From: Patescibacteria group bacterium
GTDB taxonomy: Bacteria > Patescibacteriota > Patescibacteriia > UBA1558 > UBA10009
Reading direction: 5' to 3'
Length of the DNA stretch: 54,738 nucleotides
NCBI GenBank assembly: GCA_018817315.1
Contig: JAHITV010000004.1
Location: forward strand, 1 to 54,738
Numbering within the stretch: position 1 is the first letter of the stretch; every line of letters starts with the position of its first letter. The position numbers and the translations under genes were made by a program. The notes under the pieces were generated by a model. It was not told the origin of the DNA. It did not search any database and saw only the letters and a program-made list of their open reading frames with translations. Positions 28,673-34,723 of the stretch are shown here, in pieces.

Positions 28673-29722
28673 TTAGTTGAAAATTTTTGAAAATTTCTGT
28701 TTGCTTATTTTAAGATTTTTTTCCGTTAAAAGCAAGTTTTTCAATCCCCAATTAATGTAAGATTGTGGCAGTTTTTTTAAGGCTAAAAAATAAATATCAA
28801 CTAAAACATGGCTTAAGAAAGCAAAGTGCAGTGCTTTAAATAGATATTTTTTCTCAATAGTTGTAAGTTTTCTAATTTTGTTATAACTGTCGTAAATTAT
28901 TTTGGCTCTCTTTAAATTAAAGTTACCTTCTTTAGAGCAGTACCACATCATGGTGTTGGCTAGATCCAAAACTAATGGGCCGTTATAGGAGTTGTCAAAA
29001 TCAACAACACCAGTTAGTTTATTTTTCACAAAAAGAGTATTTTCGGGCTTTAAATCAATGTGCATAGCGCCTTTAGGTAAATTCCCAGGTAATTTATATT
29101 TTAAAAAGTTTTGTTCAATATAATTTAAAGCGGATTTTATGCTTGGAGTTTTTAATTTTTGGCTAACTTTTAAGATCAACTCCAGTTTATTTTTAGAAAT
29201 ATTGTAGAATTCCAGACGCTTGACTTTGGTTTGGAAATTTTCAGTTTGTAAATGCAGTTTAGCTAAGAAAATAGCTGTTTGACTTATCATTTTGTCGCTA
29301 AATTTGACTTTTTCTTCCCCTTTTAAATATGAGTATAACAAAACAGTTTGATTATTAAATTTGGTTAGATATTTACCATTAATGTTTTTTATTGGTTTAG
29401 CAGTTGGTAGATTTTTTAGATGGTTTAAAAGATCAATTTCATATTTAATCTTTGCCGGTGCATGGCGGATAATAATTTTAAAAGTATAGTTTCTTTTAGT
29501 GGTTTTAAGATGATAAACTTGATTAGCTAGGCCTTTTTTAAATTTTTTAAAAGACAATAAACTACCGACGTTATATTGTCTTAAAAAATTATTAAGCGTG
29601 GAATGGTTTACCCCGTTAGAAACAGAATGCCCCACGGCTTGCCGCGGGAATGAATGCTTATATTTTTTAGCGAACACGGGTTTTAATGCCCAGTGTGAGC
29701 TTTTAACGGGGTTTACTTTCAT
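28673..29722 (-). CDS. Homoserine kinase type II / APH-family phosphotransferase with an in-frame 35-aa N-terminal insertion
   Basis: GLANQVY, LAKLH, HIDLKPEN, GVVDFD, DLA. Confidence 0.85.
   Translation of the reverse strand: MKVNPVKSSHWALKPVFAKKYKHSFPRQAVGHSVSNGVNHSTLNNFLRQYNVGSLLSFKKFKKGLANQVYHLKTTKRNYTFKIIIRHAPAKIKYEIDLLNHLKNLPTAKPIKNINGKYLTKFNNQTVLLYSYLKGEEKVKFSDKMISQTAIFLAKLHLQTENFQTKVKRLEFYNISKNKLELILKVSQKLKTPSIKSALNYIEQNFLKYKLPGNLPKGAMHIDLKPENTLFVKNKLTGVVDFDNSYNGPLVLDLANTMMWYCSKEGNFNLKRAKIIYDSYNKIRKLTTIEKKYLFKALHFAFLSHVLVDIYFLALKKLPQSYINWGLKNLLLTEKNLKISKQKFSKIFN
29610..29712. mobile_element. 103-bp miniature inverted-repeat element inserted in-frame in the phosphotransferase gene
   Basis: Terminal IRs ACCCCGTTAGAA / TTTTAACGGGGT, TT on both flanks (105 bp = 35 codons), GC-rich internal hairpins. 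Confidence 0.8.
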
Positions 29723-30135
29723 GATTTTTGAATTTTCTCAATAACTGGTTTAATGTTTGGAGCACAATCTTCTGGTAATTCATCAAGCGGAAACCAGTTC
29801 CATTCACTAATTTCTGGTCCGGGTTTAATTTCACCAATCCGTTTGGCTAAGTAATGAACAGCAATCACAATTGAGTTATCATTTCTTTTTATTAATATCA
29901 CATCCAGTAGTTTTTCAATTTCAATGTCAATGCCCATTTCTTCTTTAACTTCACGTTTGGCGGTTTCTTCCAAATTGACATCAAAATCTTCTGCTTCTCC
30001 GCCACAAAACTGCCATTTAGGGTTAGGTCTTTTATCAGTGGTTTTGGCTTTGTTTAATAATGTGCAAAGCTTTCCGTTAATTTCTTCAATAATTACCGGA
30101 CCAGAAGCGATAATTGAATTTGGAGGCAGTTGCAT
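29719..30135 (-). CDS. NUDIX hydrolase
   Basis: Nudix box GGEAEDFDVNLEETAKREVKEEMG. Confidence 0.92.
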   Translation of the reverse strand: MQLPPNSIIASGPVIIEEINGKLCTLLNKAKTTDKRPNPKWQFCGGEAEDFDVNLEETAKREVKEEMGIDIEIEKLLDVILIKRNDNSIVIAVHYLAKRIGEIKPGPEISEWNWFPLDELPEDCAPNIKPVIEKIQKS

Positions 30136-30139
30136 ATAA

Positions 30140-30766
30140 TTAATTATTAAGTTTTGGTTTTTTAAGTTTACTTTTAGGTAATTTCTTATAAGTCATTTTC
30201 TTTAGATTTTTCCACCAGTCAGTTGGTTCAGTTTTTTCAATTTCTAAAAGTAGTTTTTTAGCAGATTCTGTTTCCAAAGCTTTTTTAACATTGTTAATCC
30301 AGCTTTGGGTTGATTTATAACCTTGAGATAAATGTTCTCTGGCAGTAATAGCATTTTCCAGCCAGTCTGCATCTTGAACAATTACCCCTTCCAAAGTTTT
30401 GCGGCCTTCTTTTTCTTTTAAGAGTGTTCGCCATTCCTTTTTTATCTTGTCTGGCAGATTTTTAGTTTGATCATAAAAAGCTTTTTCTTCAGCAGGATAA
30501 GTTTTTAAATATCTGGCTGAAACTTTATGATGATCACCAATGCGGATTTCACCCAAATCATGGATAAGAGCCATAACTGCGGCTTTATAAGGATCAGCAT
30601 TTTCTAGTTCAGCTAGAATATAAGCAATTAAAGCAGTTCTAACAGTATGATCAGCTAAACTTTCTGTTTCCAGAACTAAAGCCAGTTTAAAACCGGCTCG
30701 TTGCATTTTACCTAAGATGCCGAACTCATAAAATAAATTTACTAAATTTTTTGTTTGCTTTGCCAT
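30140..30766 (-). CDS. HD-domain phosphohydrolase (YfbR/HDDC2-like 5'-deoxynucleotidase)
   Basis: ESLADHT, ALIHDLGEIRIGD, QDADWLE. Confidence 0.88.
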   Translation of the reverse strand: MAKQTKNLVNLFYEFGILGKMQRAGFKLALVLETESLADHTVRTALIAYILAELENADPYKAAVMALIHDLGEIRIGDHHKVSARYLKTYPAEEKAFYDQTKNLPDKIKKEWRTLLKEKEGRKTLEGVIVQDADWLENAITAREHLSQGYKSTQSWINNVKKALETESAKKLLLEIEKTEPTDWWKNLKKMTYKKLPKSKLKKPKLNN

Positions 30767-30779
30767 AAAATTTTAGAGG

Positions 30780-32399
30780 TTAATGTAAATATTTTATCAT
30801 ATATGTCTCTTCCAGACAATAACCAAGTTTTTGGTAATAAGGCCTGACACCAATACCGGAAATGACAGCAATTTTTTTAAGCCCGTGTTTATAGGTTAAA
30901 TCTTCAGCGATTTTCATTAAACGTTTGCCAAAACCAGTGTGCTGAATGGCGTTGGTTAAATGAGGATTAATTCCTCGTTTACCGGAGAGAAGAGGAGATT
31001 TAACAGGAATTAACTGTCCGTAAGTATGCAGTTCTCTAACTAAAGAAGCATTTTTTAATTCAGGAATAAAATTATTTTGTTCATCATTTACTCTAAATCT
31101 AATAAAAGAATATAATTTATCTCTTTTAGGACTTTCATAACTGATAAAGTATTCCCAACCATCACTGGCACGGTACTTTTCAGTAAAGAGTTTAGCTTTT
31201 TTAAGATTAGTAATATCTTCTTTAGCTTCTCGGCAACGGATACATTTGCATTTCTTTTCTTGTTTTTGCATTTTTTCCTGTAACAACTGTCGTAAATTAG
31301 TAATTTTATTACCGGCGGCAATACTTTGTTTAGGAATATCTCTAATTAATCTGTTGATTCGGACGTAGTAAGGTACTGTTTGTTTTATTTTTAGCAAAAG
31401 ATTCAGTAATTGTTTTGGGGAATAAGGTTTATGTTTGCCGGATTTATACCAGCGATAAAGCGGCGCATACTTATTTACTACTGTGGGATAAATTTTTATC
31501 TGATCGGGCTGAAAATTTTTATCAGTAAAGATCTTTTTGAACATTTGCAAATCTTTAGCTGGAGTGGAGTTTGGTAAATTCGGCATTAAATGATAATCAA
31601 TCTTAAAACCAGCTCGTTTTAAAAGTTTAGTGGCTTGGATGGTTTGTTTTACTGTATGTCCTCGCTTAACAAAGGCCAAGATTTTATCATTTAAGTGTTG
31701 CACCCCAAATTGAACTCTGGTAATGCCTAATTCTCTAAACCATTTAATTTCCTGTTCATTAATCATATCTGGCCGTGTTTCAATGGTAACGCCGATAATG
31801 CGGTATTTGGTTTTTTCGTTTTGTTTAAAAGTTTGCTCTAAAGTTTTTACTGGTTTTGTTTTTTTATTAAAATTATTACAAGTGGCAAAACAGTTTTTAA
31901 TAAAAGTTTTTTGATATTTTTTAGTATAAGCATTAAAACAGCCGCCTAAAATTAATAATTCAATTTTGTCAACTTCATGACCATTAGCTTCTAAAGCTTT
32001 AATTCTCATTTTAACCTGTTTTACAGGATCAAATTTATTTAAGACGGCACGCATGGCAGCCGGTTCATTGGAAAGATAGCTTTTGGGCATTTTTGGTTCG
32101 GCAGGGCAATAAATACATTTTCCAGGACAAGGGTATGGTTTAGTTAAGACAGTTAAGGGTGTTACTCCTGATAAAGTTCTGGTACGACGTTTAGTTAAAA
32201 AGGCAAGCAACTTTTTGATTTTGTTTTTTTCTGATTTAGAAAGTTTGAGTTGACGATAGACCTTAATCAGGGTAGCATTGTTTAGAGGCGGAAGATTAAA
32301 TTCTCCAGAGAATCTTTTTTTAAGCACCAGAAAAGAACTGTAATCTTTGGGATTAGCTTTGATGATTTTAGAAATAATTATTTTATCAATATTTTTCAT
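30780..32399 (-). CDS. elp3: Elp3 radical-SAM/GNAT tRNA uridine(34) carboxymethyltransferase
   Basis: RTLSGVTP, PYPCPGKCIYCP, PKSY..EPAAMRA, IETRPD, KIYPT, RINRLIRDIP, CKCIRCRE, VRELHTYG, QHTGFG, VISGIGVRPYYQKLGY. Confidence 0.95.
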   Translation of the reverse strand: MKNIDKIIISKIIKANPKDYSSFLVLKKRFSGEFNLPPLNNATLIKVYRQLKLSKSEKNKIKKLLAFLTKRRTRTLSGVTPLTVLTKPYPCPGKCIYCPAEPKMPKSYLSNEPAAMRAVLNKFDPVKQVKMRIKALEANGHEVDKIELLILGGCFNAYTKKYQKTFIKNCFATCNNFNKKTKPVKTLEQTFKQNEKTKYRIIGVTIETRPDMINEQEIKWFRELGITRVQFGVQHLNDKILAFVKRGHTVKQTIQATKLLKRAGFKIDYHLMPNLPNSTPAKDLQMFKKIFTDKNFQPDQIKIYPTVVNKYAPLYRWYKSGKHKPYSPKQLLNLLLKIKQTVPYYVRINRLIRDIPKQSIAAGNKITNLRQLLQEKMQKQEKKCKCIRCREAKEDITNLKKAKLFTEKYRASDGWEYFISYESPKRDKLYSFIRFRVNDEQNNFIPELKNASLVRELHTYGQLIPVKSPLLSGKRGINPHLTNAIQHTGFGKRLMKIAEDLTYKHGLKKIAVISGIGVRPYYQKLGYCLEETYMIKYLH

Positions 32400-32410
32400 A
32401 AAATACCCTG

Positions 32411-33118
32411 ATGAAAAAAACAGAAAAGTTATTGCAAAAAATTAAAGATGATTACAATCAAATTGCTAGTCATTTCAGCCAGACTAGAGTTATGCCTTGG
32501 ACTGAATTTGGGCTGTTTAAAGAGTATATCAAGCCAGGGCAGAAAATTCTAGACCTGGGTTGTGGCAATGGCCGCTGGTATAAATTTTTAATAGACCAGC
32601 ATTTGCCTGTTGAATATTACGGCTTAGATAATAGTGAGCAGTTGATTAAAGTCGCCAAGGAAACTTATTCTAATGAGGCAGCTAGATTTATTTTGGGGGA
32701 ATTAACTAAACTCAATTTCCCTGAAAATAGTTTTGAGGTGGTGGTTTGTATCGCTACTTTACATCACTTGCCGTCACGGCAATTACGTCAGCAGGCCATA
32801 GCAGAAATATATCGGGTTTTAAAGCCAGGCGGATATTTTTTAATGACCAATTGGTATTTATGGAACACAGTCAACTTTAAAAATTATTTTAATTGTTTCT
32901 GGCAAAAAAGTTCCTTTAAAGATTTTTTTATTCCCTGGAAAGATCCTCAAGGCAATGTTTTAAGTCAGCGCTATTATTATGCTTTCACTAAGAGAAAGTT
33001 AGCCAAACTTTTACAGACTGCGAATTTTAAAGTTGAAAGGAATTTTTCTCAATCACGGCAAAAAAAATCAGGCAAAGCCAAGGGAGTTAATCTTGTTTCT
33101 ATTGCCAGAAAAGAATAG
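32411..33118 (+). CDS. Class I SAM methyltransferase, Trm9/ALKBH8-like (candidate cm5U34 O-methyltransferase)
   Basis: YNQIASHFSQTR..PW, LDLGCGNGR, IATLHHLPS..R, RVLKPGG, DFFIPWK, RYYYAF. Confidence 0.8.
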   Translation: MKKTEKLLQKIKDDYNQIASHFSQTRVMPWTEFGLFKEYIKPGQKILDLGCGNGRWYKFLIDQHLPVEYYGLDNSEQLIKVAKETYSNEAARFILGELTKLNFPENSFEVVVCIATLHHLPSRQLRQQAIAEIYRVLKPGGYFLMTNWYLWNTVNFKNYFNCFWQKSSFKDFFIPWKDPQGNVLSQRYYYAFTKRKLAKLLQTANFKVERNFSQSRQKKSGKAKGVNLVSIARKE

Positions 33119-33208: not shown

Positions 33209-33562
33209 TCAGCCTTTTTTTGGATAAATAAGAAGATAGAGAATAAAGAACAAGATGGCCAGAATAACTGAGACGATACAACTTCCCAAGAACCAGAAGA
33301 AATTTAGCCACCCTAGGTGTAGAAAATAAGTCCAGAAGATTCCCACTATAATCACGCAAAGCCAGGAGATTATCCCTGGTAGAATGGAATTTTCAAAAAA
33401 GATGATTATTAGAGCCAAGGGCCATAACCAAAGTAATCTTAAGTATAATTCCAGGCCGTCCTCCTTGAAAGGAGTGTCGGGTAAAAGGTAGATTATCAAG
33501 GTGATGATTTGACTCAAGACAAACCAAATAATAGCCGATACAACAACAATTTGGATAATCAT
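33209..33562 (-). CDS. Small multi-pass membrane protein, paralogue 1
   Basis: LLWLWPLAL and GIFWTYFLHL shared with neighbours. Confidence 0.75.
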   Translation of the reverse strand: MIIQIVVVSAIIWFVLSQIITLIIYLLPDTPFKEDGLELYLRLLWLWPLALIIIFFENSILPGIISWLCVIIVGIFWTYFLHLGWLNFFWFLGSCIVSVILAILFFILYLLIYPKKG

Positions 33563-33819: not shown

Positions 33820-34158
33820 TTATCTCTCTGGTAATGACATTAGGATAACATTTTCAAGAATCCATAATACTACGATACCTGCCGGAAAAAAAGGAAAAAA
33901 TATAGCAGGTAGTTGTAGCAGATAGGTCCAGAAAATTCCTGCTATTAAAACGATTATGATTCCGACGCGCACAGATCCATACTTTTTCATTCCCCGTGCA
34001 TCTTGAATGAAAGCATATAATCCTGCCGGCCATAATAATAGAAAGTTCCAAGGAAGCTGTAAACGCTTGCCGGGTACACGAAATGTTTGCCAGGCCAATG
34101 CACCTAATAGCAAATCAAGAACCAAATAAAAGATGACAGAAACAATTAGAATATTCAT
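33820..34158 (-). CDS. Small multi-pass membrane protein, paralogue 2
   Basis: FLLLWPAGL and GIFWTYLLQL; SD GAGG upstream. Confidence 0.75.
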   Translation of the reverse strand: MNILIVSVIFYLVLDLLLGALAWQTFRVPGKRLQLPWNFLLLWPAGLYAFIQDARGMKKYGSVRVGIIIVLIAGIFWTYLLQLPAIFFPFFPAGIVVLWILENVILMSLPER

Positions 34159-34312: not shown

Positions 34313-34723
34313 TTAGCTTTTTTTACACATAATAAATACGTAGATGATGATATCTATGAAGGCATCTACAATGGCGTATGGTATTACTCCTATTACATAG
34401 AAGAGGAACAACACAAAAACATTCGTTCCAGACTTCCATATAACAGTCATACAGATAATAAAAATCACTGCGCCTGCAATCCACGTTAAAAGTCCAATAA
34501 TAGGACATTCTCCGGTGTTGTTACGTCGTACAACACTATATAGATAAAATGGCCAATAAAACAGAGCTAAAGAGTGTTCTTTGATTTGTGATAGTAGTCT
34601 GGTGTGCTTAACATCAGATGTGCATGATCGGCGTTTTGTAATAATATACAAACGCGCAGTTACTTGGCTAAGAAGGAGATAAATAATAAAAAGCACCTTA
34701 ATAGCTATAATGGGATTTTCCAT
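34313..34723 (-). CDS. Small multi-pass membrane protein, paralogue 3 (more divergent)
   Basis: YLLLSQV (compare WFVLSQI in paralogue 1), ALFYWPFYL; SD GGAG upstream. Confidence 0.7.
   Translation of the reverse strand: MENPIIAIKVLFIIYLLLSQVTARLYIITKRRSCTSDVKHTRLLSQIKEHSLALFYWPFYLYSVVRRNNTGECPIIGLLTWIAGAVIFIICMTVIWKSGTNVFVLFLFYVIGVIPYAIVDAFIDIIIYVFIMCKKS

Follow-up and report, generated by a model that had tools for sequence, protein, structure and literature searches.

A head-to-head gene pair for Elp3 and a Trm9-like methyltransferase in Patescibacteria: a predicted two-gene route to the wobble nucleoside mcm5U34

Wobble uridine modifications of the 5-methoxycarbonylmethyluridine (mcm5U) type are usually held to be characteristic of eukaryotes and archaea. 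In eukaryotes the step after Elp3 falls to Trm9, known from the Trm9-Trm112 complex of Saccharomyces cerevisiae and Yarrowia lipolytica (PDB 5cm2), and to ALKBH8 through its methyltransferase domain; both have a class I S-adenosylmethionine (SAM) methyltransferase fold. Among archaea, the Trm9-Trm112 complex of Haloferax volcanii (HVO_1032) makes mcm5U, with Trm9 dependent on Trm112 both for its solubility and for its activity in vivo, and the Elp3 and Trm9 genes of Sulfolobus solfataricus are clustered (PMC6144793). A lone Elp3 is known from archaea and "some bacterial clades", and the Elp3 of Dehalococcoides mccartyi has been called "a rare example of bacterial Elp3s" (PMC6367351); the accessible portions of the literature searched make no mention of a methyltransferase partner for that protein. 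The MnmE/MnmG (plus MnmC) route, which with MnmA gives (c)mnm5(s2)U34, serves the same tRNA position and decoding role by different chemistry and with unrelated enzymes, MnmA being common to both. Here we describe, in a 54,738-nucleotide stretch of DNA from a Patescibacteria group bacterium (contig JAHITV010000004.1 of GenBank assembly GCA_018817315.1; this whole stretch is the window below), an elp3 gene that stands head to head with a gene for a Trm9-like methyltransferase, and we put at roughly three chances in four that the two genes provide a two-gene route to mcm5U at position 34 (mcm5U34) that operates without Trm112. MnmA would probably thiolate this product to the 2-thio derivative mcm5s2U34.

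The Elp3 open reading frame (ORF) occupies positions 30780-32399 on the minus strand (539 amino acids (aa), ATG start) and the ORF of the class I SAM methyltransferase, a predicted carboxyl O-methyltransferase of 5-carboxymethyluridine at position 34 (cm5U34), occupies positions 32411-33118 on the plus strand (235 aa, ATG start). The original prediction described the two as head to head with 11 bp between their starts, and both the ORF list and the spacer itself (AAAATACCCTG, positions 32400-32410, between two divergent ATG codons on opposite strands) agree with it. Both starts are supported by homologues: the initial methionine of the methyltransferase (M1) does not vary among 37 of them, and the Elp3 N-terminus aligns with those of 20 relatives, the family model TIGR01211 matching residues 9-538. 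Since the spacer is only 11 bp, both promoters must sit within the coding region of the partner gene. A promoter and terminator scan round the pair gave no excess of sites (16, compared with 10.6 +/- 3.6 in shuffled sequences); one plus-strand promoter site lies at 32250-32278, inside elp3, which is weak evidence.

The Elp3 had been called complete from its sequence, and the family search bears this out: NCBIfam TIGR01211 (ELP3) matches it with E 8.5e-163 and 542.6 bits (cut-off 350), with residues 9-538 on positions 3-522 of the 522-position model. Pfam Radical_SAM (61.1 bits vs 29.5) and Radical_SAM_C are above their cut-offs, and the stand-alone Pfam GNAT models fall slightly below theirs (20.0 vs 23.6 and 17.7 vs 20.7); the TIGR01211 match reaches the last position of the model and so spans the GNAT/KAT domain. 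Three motifs are preserved in 21 Elp3 sequences from the phylum: the radical-SAM cluster motif CPGKCIYC (residues 91-98, positions 32106-32129, minus strand), with C91, C95 and C98 invariant; CKCIRC (31233-31250, minus strand), whose invariant C384, C386 and C389 belong to the kind of zinc site that Elp3 typically has in bacteria and archaea; and QHTGFG (30927-30944, minus strand), with which the GNAT domain binds acetyl-CoA, with Q486, H487, G489 and G491 invariant, which we take to be GNAT motif A. By sequence the protein, a predicted radical-SAM plus GNAT cm5U34 synthase, looks complete and catalytically intact. All of its strong PDB relatives are Elp3-family chains (E 6.9e-109 to 1.4e-90), including eukaryotic Elongator subunit 3 at about 1e-91 and chain 5l7j, presumably the D. 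mccartyi Elp3, at 1.4e-103. Because the match to 6iaz starts at residue 54 and that to 5l7j only at residue 70, the present protein carries an N-terminal extension. As in archaea, this is a lone Elp3 without Elp1, 2 and 4-6, it has the bacterial/archaeal three-Cys zinc motif, and a Trm9-type enzyme is predicted to follow it; it is bacterial and stand-alone as is that of Dehalococcoides.

Does the methyltransferase have features that go beyond those of a generic class I enzyme, as was originally claimed? Alanine mutants of yeast Trm9 at R29, D72, H116, W145, W168, R241, Y243 and N271 confer zymocin resistance, with activity abolished or strongly reduced: H116A, W145A and W168A are inactive, and R241A and Y243A are severely impaired. 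No difference from wild type was seen for H24A, K31A, R122A, E148A, Q149A and D270A, and the effect of H115A is mild (PMC4678810, Letoquart et al. 2015). We mapped these positions through HMMER alignments to the Y. lipolytica Trm9 chain 5cm2_Z (chain index + 35 = Yarrowia numbering, checked on H126/H127) and counted conservation over 43 family sequences from the sampled genomes (below), and by these alignments seven of the eight essential residues are identical in the window protein: R26, D73, H119, W148, W176, R187 and Y189. R26 (positions 32486-32488; all features of this gene are on the plus strand) corresponds to yeast R29, YlTrm9 R40 and residue R5 of chain 5cm2_Z, the arginine proposed to position the cm5U carboxylate (PMC4678810), and it is present in 43/43 sequences. 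The SAM-binding motif I, LDLGCGNG (residues 47-54, positions 32549-32572), has L47, D48, G52 and N53 invariant in the 37-sequence alignment, in which the SAM-binding Asp D73 (32627-32629, yeast D72) is also invariant; D73 is Asp in 42 of the 43. H118-H119 (32762-32767) match yeast H115-H116, with the essential H119 in 43/43 and H118, the position of mild effect, in 35/43; W148 (32852-32854, yeast W145) is in 43/43; W176 of the IPW motif (32936-32938, yeast W168) is Trp in 39 and Phe in 4; and in R187-Y188-Y189 (32969-32977), where R187 and Y189 correspond to R241 and Y243, the arginine is kept in 42 of 43. For the eighth residue, N271, which is concerned with uracil recognition, the equivalent is probably N227 (33089-33091; conservation among the 37 aligned sequences is 90% or higher), matched by the shared C-terminal N-x3-[IV]-A motif in a stretch that HMMER left unaligned.

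The spacing of Y15 and H21 from R26 equals that of Y18 and H24 from R29 in yeast, and H21, whose yeast counterpart H24 is dispensable, is His in only 11 of the 43 sequences. The pattern of conservation thus mirrors the yeast Trm9 mutant data, in that the essential positions are near-invariant and the dispensable H24 position varies. The motifs on which the earlier claim was based (DDYNQIASHFSQTRVMPW, CIATLHHLPSRQLR, DFFIPW and QRYYYAF) are all in the translation and contain residues that are essential in yeast Trm9, which answers the above question in its favor. With the eukaryotic enzyme the protein has in common an N-terminal Y..H..TR..PW helix, the HH after strand 4, the W after the PGG strand, the PW and the RYY(H/Y), along with the seven identical residues and the predicted place downstream of Elp3.

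Is the pairing peculiar to this contig? The sample consisted of 301 genomes of Patescibacteria, which are related to one another, so that plain counts overstate the independence of the observations. Elp3 was called with TIGR01211 at E<=1e-30 and was found in 121 of the 301 genomes (118 above the model cut-off), so that within this one phylum it is not the rarity that the Dehalococcoides case was said to be. With the single window protein as query (E<=1e-20) the methyltransferase was found in 75 genomes, all 75 of which have Elp3, and in none of the 180 genomes that lack Elp3. The two genes are on one contig in 70 of these 75 genomes, divergent in 68, and have match ends less than 300 bp apart in 58 (pair distances are those between aligned match ends, not start codons); the 66 pairs that lie within 1.3 kb are drawn from 33 families and 56 genera. 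In 40 of the 46 Elp3 genomes without a single-protein match we examined the 2.5 kb upstream of elp3, and a profile built from an alignment of 37 methyltransferase family members (alignment A1) added a divergent member in 10. When a full-length family member is defined as a profile match that reaches position >=200 with E<=1e-28, a threshold that was set after the list had been inspected, 96 of the 301 genomes have the methyltransferase and 93 of those 96 also have Elp3, the two genes being divergent neighbors in 78 of the 93 (68 + 10). This arrangement is far beyond chance, and the linkage to elp3 in relatives that had been predicted is present across the phylum. No third conserved gene, such as a small Trm112 substitute, was seen in 30 pair loci, in which only Elp3, the methyltransferase and shadow ORFs recur. 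Prediction of a complex of the two proteins gave scores of 0.00 and 0.00 compared with a mark of 0.32, which is no answer and speaks neither for nor against binding.

These counts bear directly on the possibility that the protein is a generic small-molecule or lipid methyltransferase of the UbiE/BioC kind which merely adjoins elp3. The family databases are what would lead one to such a view: Pfam gives generic families only (Methyltransf_11 at 86.6 bits, _25, _31 and others), no NCBIfam family is above its cut-off, with DVU_1556, UbiE and BioC far below theirs, and the JGI name UbiE is carried by many homologues (at least nine among the best 120 of 664 matches). The best UbiE model scores only 63.1 bits against a cut-off of 216, however, and TIGR01934 58.5 against 158.35, so the protein does not reach the curated cut-off for membership in the UbiE/MenG quinone methyltransferases. 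The genomes are moreover small (~1 Mb; no search was made for quinone biosynthesis), and with Elp3 in 93 of the 96 genomes of the family and 78 divergent neighbors from at least 33 families a chance neighbor is strongly disfavored; we regard this explanation as very improbable.

A methyltransferase that is truly tied to Elp3 could still catalyze something other than the Trm9 reaction, on another atom of the Elp3 product, on another nucleotide of the same tRNAs or on Elp3 itself, since linkage by itself indicates a shared process and not a chemistry. The whole-sequence and fold comparisons do not single out Trm9 here, and several of them belong among the results that weigh against a Trm9-type route. 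When the 37-member profile was run against the PDB set (177,635 sequences), the Y. lipolytica Trm9 chain 5cm2_Z came first (E 1.6e-25, 93.0 bits, chain residues 3-193), only 0.6 bits ahead of PH0226 (92.4 bits), which aligns over the Rossmann core alone; with the single sequence as query the order is reversed, the uncharacterized PH0226 being first (residues 15-145 only) and 5cm2_Z second (55.8 bits, residues 24-207). The AlphaFold2 model of the methyltransferase (pLDDT 93.6) has a Rossmann-type strand order, and Foldseek matched it in the PDB to class I methyltransferases throughout, many of them with near-equal scores, Trm9 being in rank 7 behind 3sm3, METTL6 and others; the target-normalized TM-score of Trm9, 0.81, is the highest among the Foldseek rows listed. 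Foldseek was consequently set aside for subfamily assignment, as its near-equal scores cannot assign one. Its hit 6f5z is the Haloferax Hvo_0019-Trm112 complex and not Haloferax Trm9. These comparisons are compatible with Trm9 but are not proof of it; with 93.0 to 92.4 bits and the Foldseek rank, the proposed comparison of Trm9 with generic methyltransferases discriminates only weakly at the level of whole sequences. To the adverse side belong also the variability of Y189 (Tyr in only 23 of the 43 sequences, Phe in 11), the indirect matching of N227, the generic family matches and UbiE names, the relatedness of the sampled genomes and the late threshold (above), the three genomes with a methyltransferase and no Elp3 found (G069, 98% complete; G216, 78%; G289, 76%), and the 28 of 121 Elp3 genomes in which no full-length family member was found, notably those of family f28.

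The family may also have another use, which is one more adverse point: at least two sampled genomes and two database proteins have the domain in a fusion with a glycosyltransferase of the WecG/TagA family, at a distance from elp3. The domain retains its catalytic residues in these fusions, with F in place of W176, and the glycosyltransferase is joined to its C-terminal end (L167:700-2175, minus strand, genome G199; L168:472-1998, minus strand, genome G127; proteins P0121 and P0122).

In favor of the Trm9 reaction itself, conservation extends to the residues by which Trm9 is proposed to bind the carboxylate of cm5U and the uracil ring, while yeast-dispensable positions vary, and among the top PDB matches the Trm9 alignment is the only one that takes in the N-terminal TR..PW together with the C-terminal PW and RYY elements. 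The order of steps is itself not fully understood in Haloferax, as tRNAs of the trm9 mutant have no cm5U (PMC6144793), which leaves some room for a different chemistry. On this evidence we consider a non-Trm9 reaction unlikely, and prefer methylation of the cm5U34 carboxyl by the window protein.

Further searches were made with the methyltransferase. The C-terminal 96 residues alone gave a single chance-level PDB match (E 1.1), which is uninformative. Among the best 120 of 664 word-search matches, all of which are from Patescibacteria or unnamed, the JGI names that speak for the Trm9 reading are TRM9 for P0009 and P0023 and alkB family protein 8 for P0035 and P0086; with UbiE at least nine times, the automatic naming is mixed. 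An exhaustive search of cluster representatives gave 1,999 clusters at E<=1e-30, the best 150 of which are without names, and the nearest ESM Atlas clusters are from Patescibacteria phyla, several archaeal phyla, Chloroflexota and Nucleocytoviricota under generic methyltransferase names, which serves as a lead only. When genome contigs were scanned with the single protein, only L006 and L007 proved to be real relatives; three further hits are generic methyltransferases of 25-26% identity. No ALKBH8 was found in a search for longer proteins (9 proteins); unlike ALKBH8, the window protein is a stand-alone enzyme of 235 aa without RRM and AlkB domains, and its gene is head to head with elp3.

MnmG was found in 11 of the 301 genomes; none of those 11 has Elp3, and none of the 121 Elp3 genomes has MnmG. 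The genome that contains the window (91.9% complete) gave no MnmG and no MnmE, the weak matches to the MnmE model being the GTPases Der and IF-2; the suggested check for their absence came out as predicted, in this genome for both and across the phylum for MnmG in the genomes with Elp3. Histone acetyltransferase was the historical annotation of Elp3, and it survives in the names of PDB entries matched by the present protein. One might on that account suppose that this Elp3 is not a tRNA enzyme but, for example, a protein acetyltransferase, and that the pair acts on a target other than tRNA; nothing specific from this analysis points that way apart from the historical label, and the mutual exclusion of Elp3 and MnmG (0/11 and 0/121) fits a role in U34 modification, so we give that idea hardly any weight. 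Modification of wobble uridine is the role we retain for the pair.

Neither Elp3 nor MnmG was found in 169 of the 301 genomes, and because of this many Patescibacteria may lack any known pathway for 5-substituted wobble uridines (xm5U34).

The original prediction also remarked that the window has no Trm112-like gene, and this can be extended to the whole genome, in which Trm112p (PF03966) has no match, given its 91.9% completeness and the shortness of the model (40 positions), which could miss a divergent Trm112 and is a further point on the adverse side. Among the 301 genomes a Trm112 domain is present in 19, always within an ORF of 201-758 aa, and these long ORFs may be fusions with methyltransferases; of the 96 genomes with the methyltransferase, 7 have such a match (4 above the cut-off), and in 89 there was none. 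Because the Trm112 activator was not found, we class the window protein as a homologue of the Trm9 catalytic subunit and not as a Trm9-Trm112 holoenzyme. In Y. lipolytica Trm112 shields six hydrophobic Trm9 residues, V59, F78, V102, A110, P112 and F116, which in a pairwise alignment map to K45, E68, I94, N102, P104 and F108, so that three of the six contact positions are polar. This fits a methyltransferase that would be soluble alone. Further differences from the eukaryotic enzyme are the Trm112 that was not found and a low identity to YlTrm9. The Trm112-domain matches are concentrated in families f27 (5/6 genomes: G016, G044, G093, G115 and G156) and f28 (5/14).

The window's genome encodes MnmA (412 bits vs a cut-off of 237), and the Ncs6-type thiolase model TIGR00269 has no match in it. 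The system differs from those of Haloferax and Sulfolobus in its bacterial host, in the Trm112 that was not found and in a thiolase of bacterial MnmA and not Ncs6 type. The earlier interpretation of a minimal wobble uridine pathway in eukaryotic and archaeal style is supported by the comparative evidence as far as the two genes go; it is not purely of that style, as the 2-thiolation enzyme is the bacterial MnmA. ARAGORN found 47 tRNA genes in the genome. U34 is present in 12 of them, among which are Lys-UUU, Glu-UUC, Gln-UUG and Arg-UCU. The tRNA set has some features of its own. A tRNA-Ile(UAU) gene is at C25:13281-13356 of this genome (G000), there are only two CAU tRNAs and the TilS model TIGR02432 has no match in the genome, and for these reasons the tRNA that reads AUA is probably one with U34, so that its state of modification would be of consequence. 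The Arg tRNAs are GCG, CCG, UCG, UCU and CCU, with no ACG, and this pattern is presumably more archaeal than bacterial. ARAGORN also listed, at C51:67324-67417, a tRNA-like gene of 94 nt to which it assigned no identity and whose anticodon has four bases (ggca), directly upstream of tRNA-Ile(GAU) and tRNA-Val(GAC).

From these results the two genes can be pictured as a self-contained wobble uridine modification module that would replace MnmE/MnmG. Elp3, with radical SAM chemistry and acetyl-CoA, would attach a carboxymethyl group to U34 at C5 in some of the 12 tRNAs that have this nucleotide, giving cm5U34, and the divergent methyltransferase would then use SAM to methyl-esterify the carboxyl of cm5U34, giving mcm5U34. 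In this second step R26 and H119 would position the carboxyl, W148 would stack on the base and N227 would read the uracil, as proposed for Trm9 (PMC4678810), and the enzyme would act without a Trm112 activator. MnmA would probably add the 2-thio group on tRNA-Lys(UUU), tRNA-Glu(UUC) and tRNA-Gln(UUG) to give mcm5s2U34, which would then be the product of a chimeric set of archaeal/eukaryotic and bacterial enzymes. What the analysis demonstrates is the identity of the genes, the conserved active-site residues, the linkage throughout the phylum and the mutual exclusion with MnmG, and from these we infer the chemistry, the tRNA substrates, the independence from Trm112 and the part of MnmA.

The lone Elp3, the Trm9-Trm112 complexes of eukaryotes and Haloferax and the Elp3-Trm9 cluster of Sulfolobus were already known, and a few homologues were already annotated TRM9 or ALKBH8; a literature search found no description of the frequency of Elp3 in Patescibacteria, of a head-to-head pairing with a Trm9-like gene or of the missing Trm112. 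If the reading given here is true, the Elp3 route takes the place of MnmE/MnmG in a very large radiation of bacteria, and does so in a minimal two-gene form with no Elongator scaffold and no Trm112. Studies of structure and mechanism would gain a Trm9 that is by nature independent of Trm112, and there would be a compact and portable module with which to install mcm5U in heterologous hosts, as well as a new marker of split-codon-box decoding by reduced symbiont translation systems.

What stands beside elp3 where the methyltransferase does not? Among 30 fetched loci of this kind, five have a neighbor of about 270 aa that resembles asparagine synthetase (AsnB-like). It is divergent from elp3 in four genomes (G264, L044:382-1203, plus strand; G013, L041:1016-1867, minus; G235, L042:1109-1930, minus; G133, L043:500-940, plus) and directly upstream of elp3 on the same strand in the fifth (G185, L070:1684-2484, plus). 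The protein consists of the synthetase domain only (Pfam Asn_synthase at 1.2e-29, and DUF7411; residues 208-452 of PDB 1ct9), with an invariant SGGxDS PP-loop and no NCBIfam model above its cut-off. In the 301 genomes there are just five strong matches to it, and all five are beside elp3. Family f57 has the methyltransferase in this slot in one genus (G066) and the AsnB-like gene in another, and G133 additionally has a Trm9-like gene on another contig. Asparagine synthetase domains adenylate a carboxylate and then amidate it, and because this is the chemistry needed to turn cm5U into 5-carbamoylmethyluridine (ncm5U), the AsnB-like protein is a candidate, a lead with modest support, for the amidating enzyme. 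PMC6144793 and PMC6367351 describe that enzyme as unknown in any organism, and our literature search found no paper that connects this step with the asparagine synthetase domain; the neighbor would make the long-open question of ncm5U formation directly testable.

Points against the AsnB-like idea are that only three lineages are involved in all (G264, G235 and G133 are from one genus) and that, in the wider family (286 proteins at E<=1e-5, named members being from Bathyarchaeota and Thaumarchaeota), Elp3 was in the flanks of none of 80 metagenome loci. The metagenome neighbors of the archaeal-type genes were set aside as uninformative (adenylosuccinate lyase in 29 of 63 loci, PTPS, aminoacyl-tRNA synthetase, RtcB and a deacetylase). 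The broader notion of a Trm112-free two-gene wobble module with an interchangeable second gene, Trm9-like for mcm5U or AsnB-like for ncm5U, is a possibility that we think rather unlikely.

Family f28 has Elp3 in all 14 sampled genomes and a full-length Trm9-like gene in none. In its loci (L056, L057, L064, L075, L076, L080 and others; 8 to 11 clustered) elp3 is flanked by genes for a nucleoside diphosphate kinase and a uracil-DNA glycosylase family protein. These two, and a DeoC-type aldolase in family f22, were considered as alternative Elp3 partners and rejected as housekeeping genes.

The window has a G+C content of 34% and is one of the 54 contigs (contig 35) that make up a genome of 1.05 Mb; the names borne by homologues agree with a place in the Patescibacteria. 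Three DNA runs on groundwater metagenomes contain the stretch. They belong to two studies, one of the runs possibly being the source of the window, and no RNA run that carries the stretch is on record. The genes on the 3' side of elp3 are on the same strand (28673-30766, minus) and encode an HD-domain (YfbR-like) protein, a NUDIX hydrolase and an APH-family kinase; the spacings in this row are 13, 4 and -4 bp, and the three genes may form an operon with elp3. Downstream of the methyltransferase are three small hydrophobic ORFs, all on the minus strand, at 33209-33562 (117 aa), 33820-34158 (112 aa) and 34313-34723 (136 aa). As the motif GIFWTY(F/L)L is common to the 117-aa and 112-aa ORFs, these two are probably paralogous small membrane proteins.

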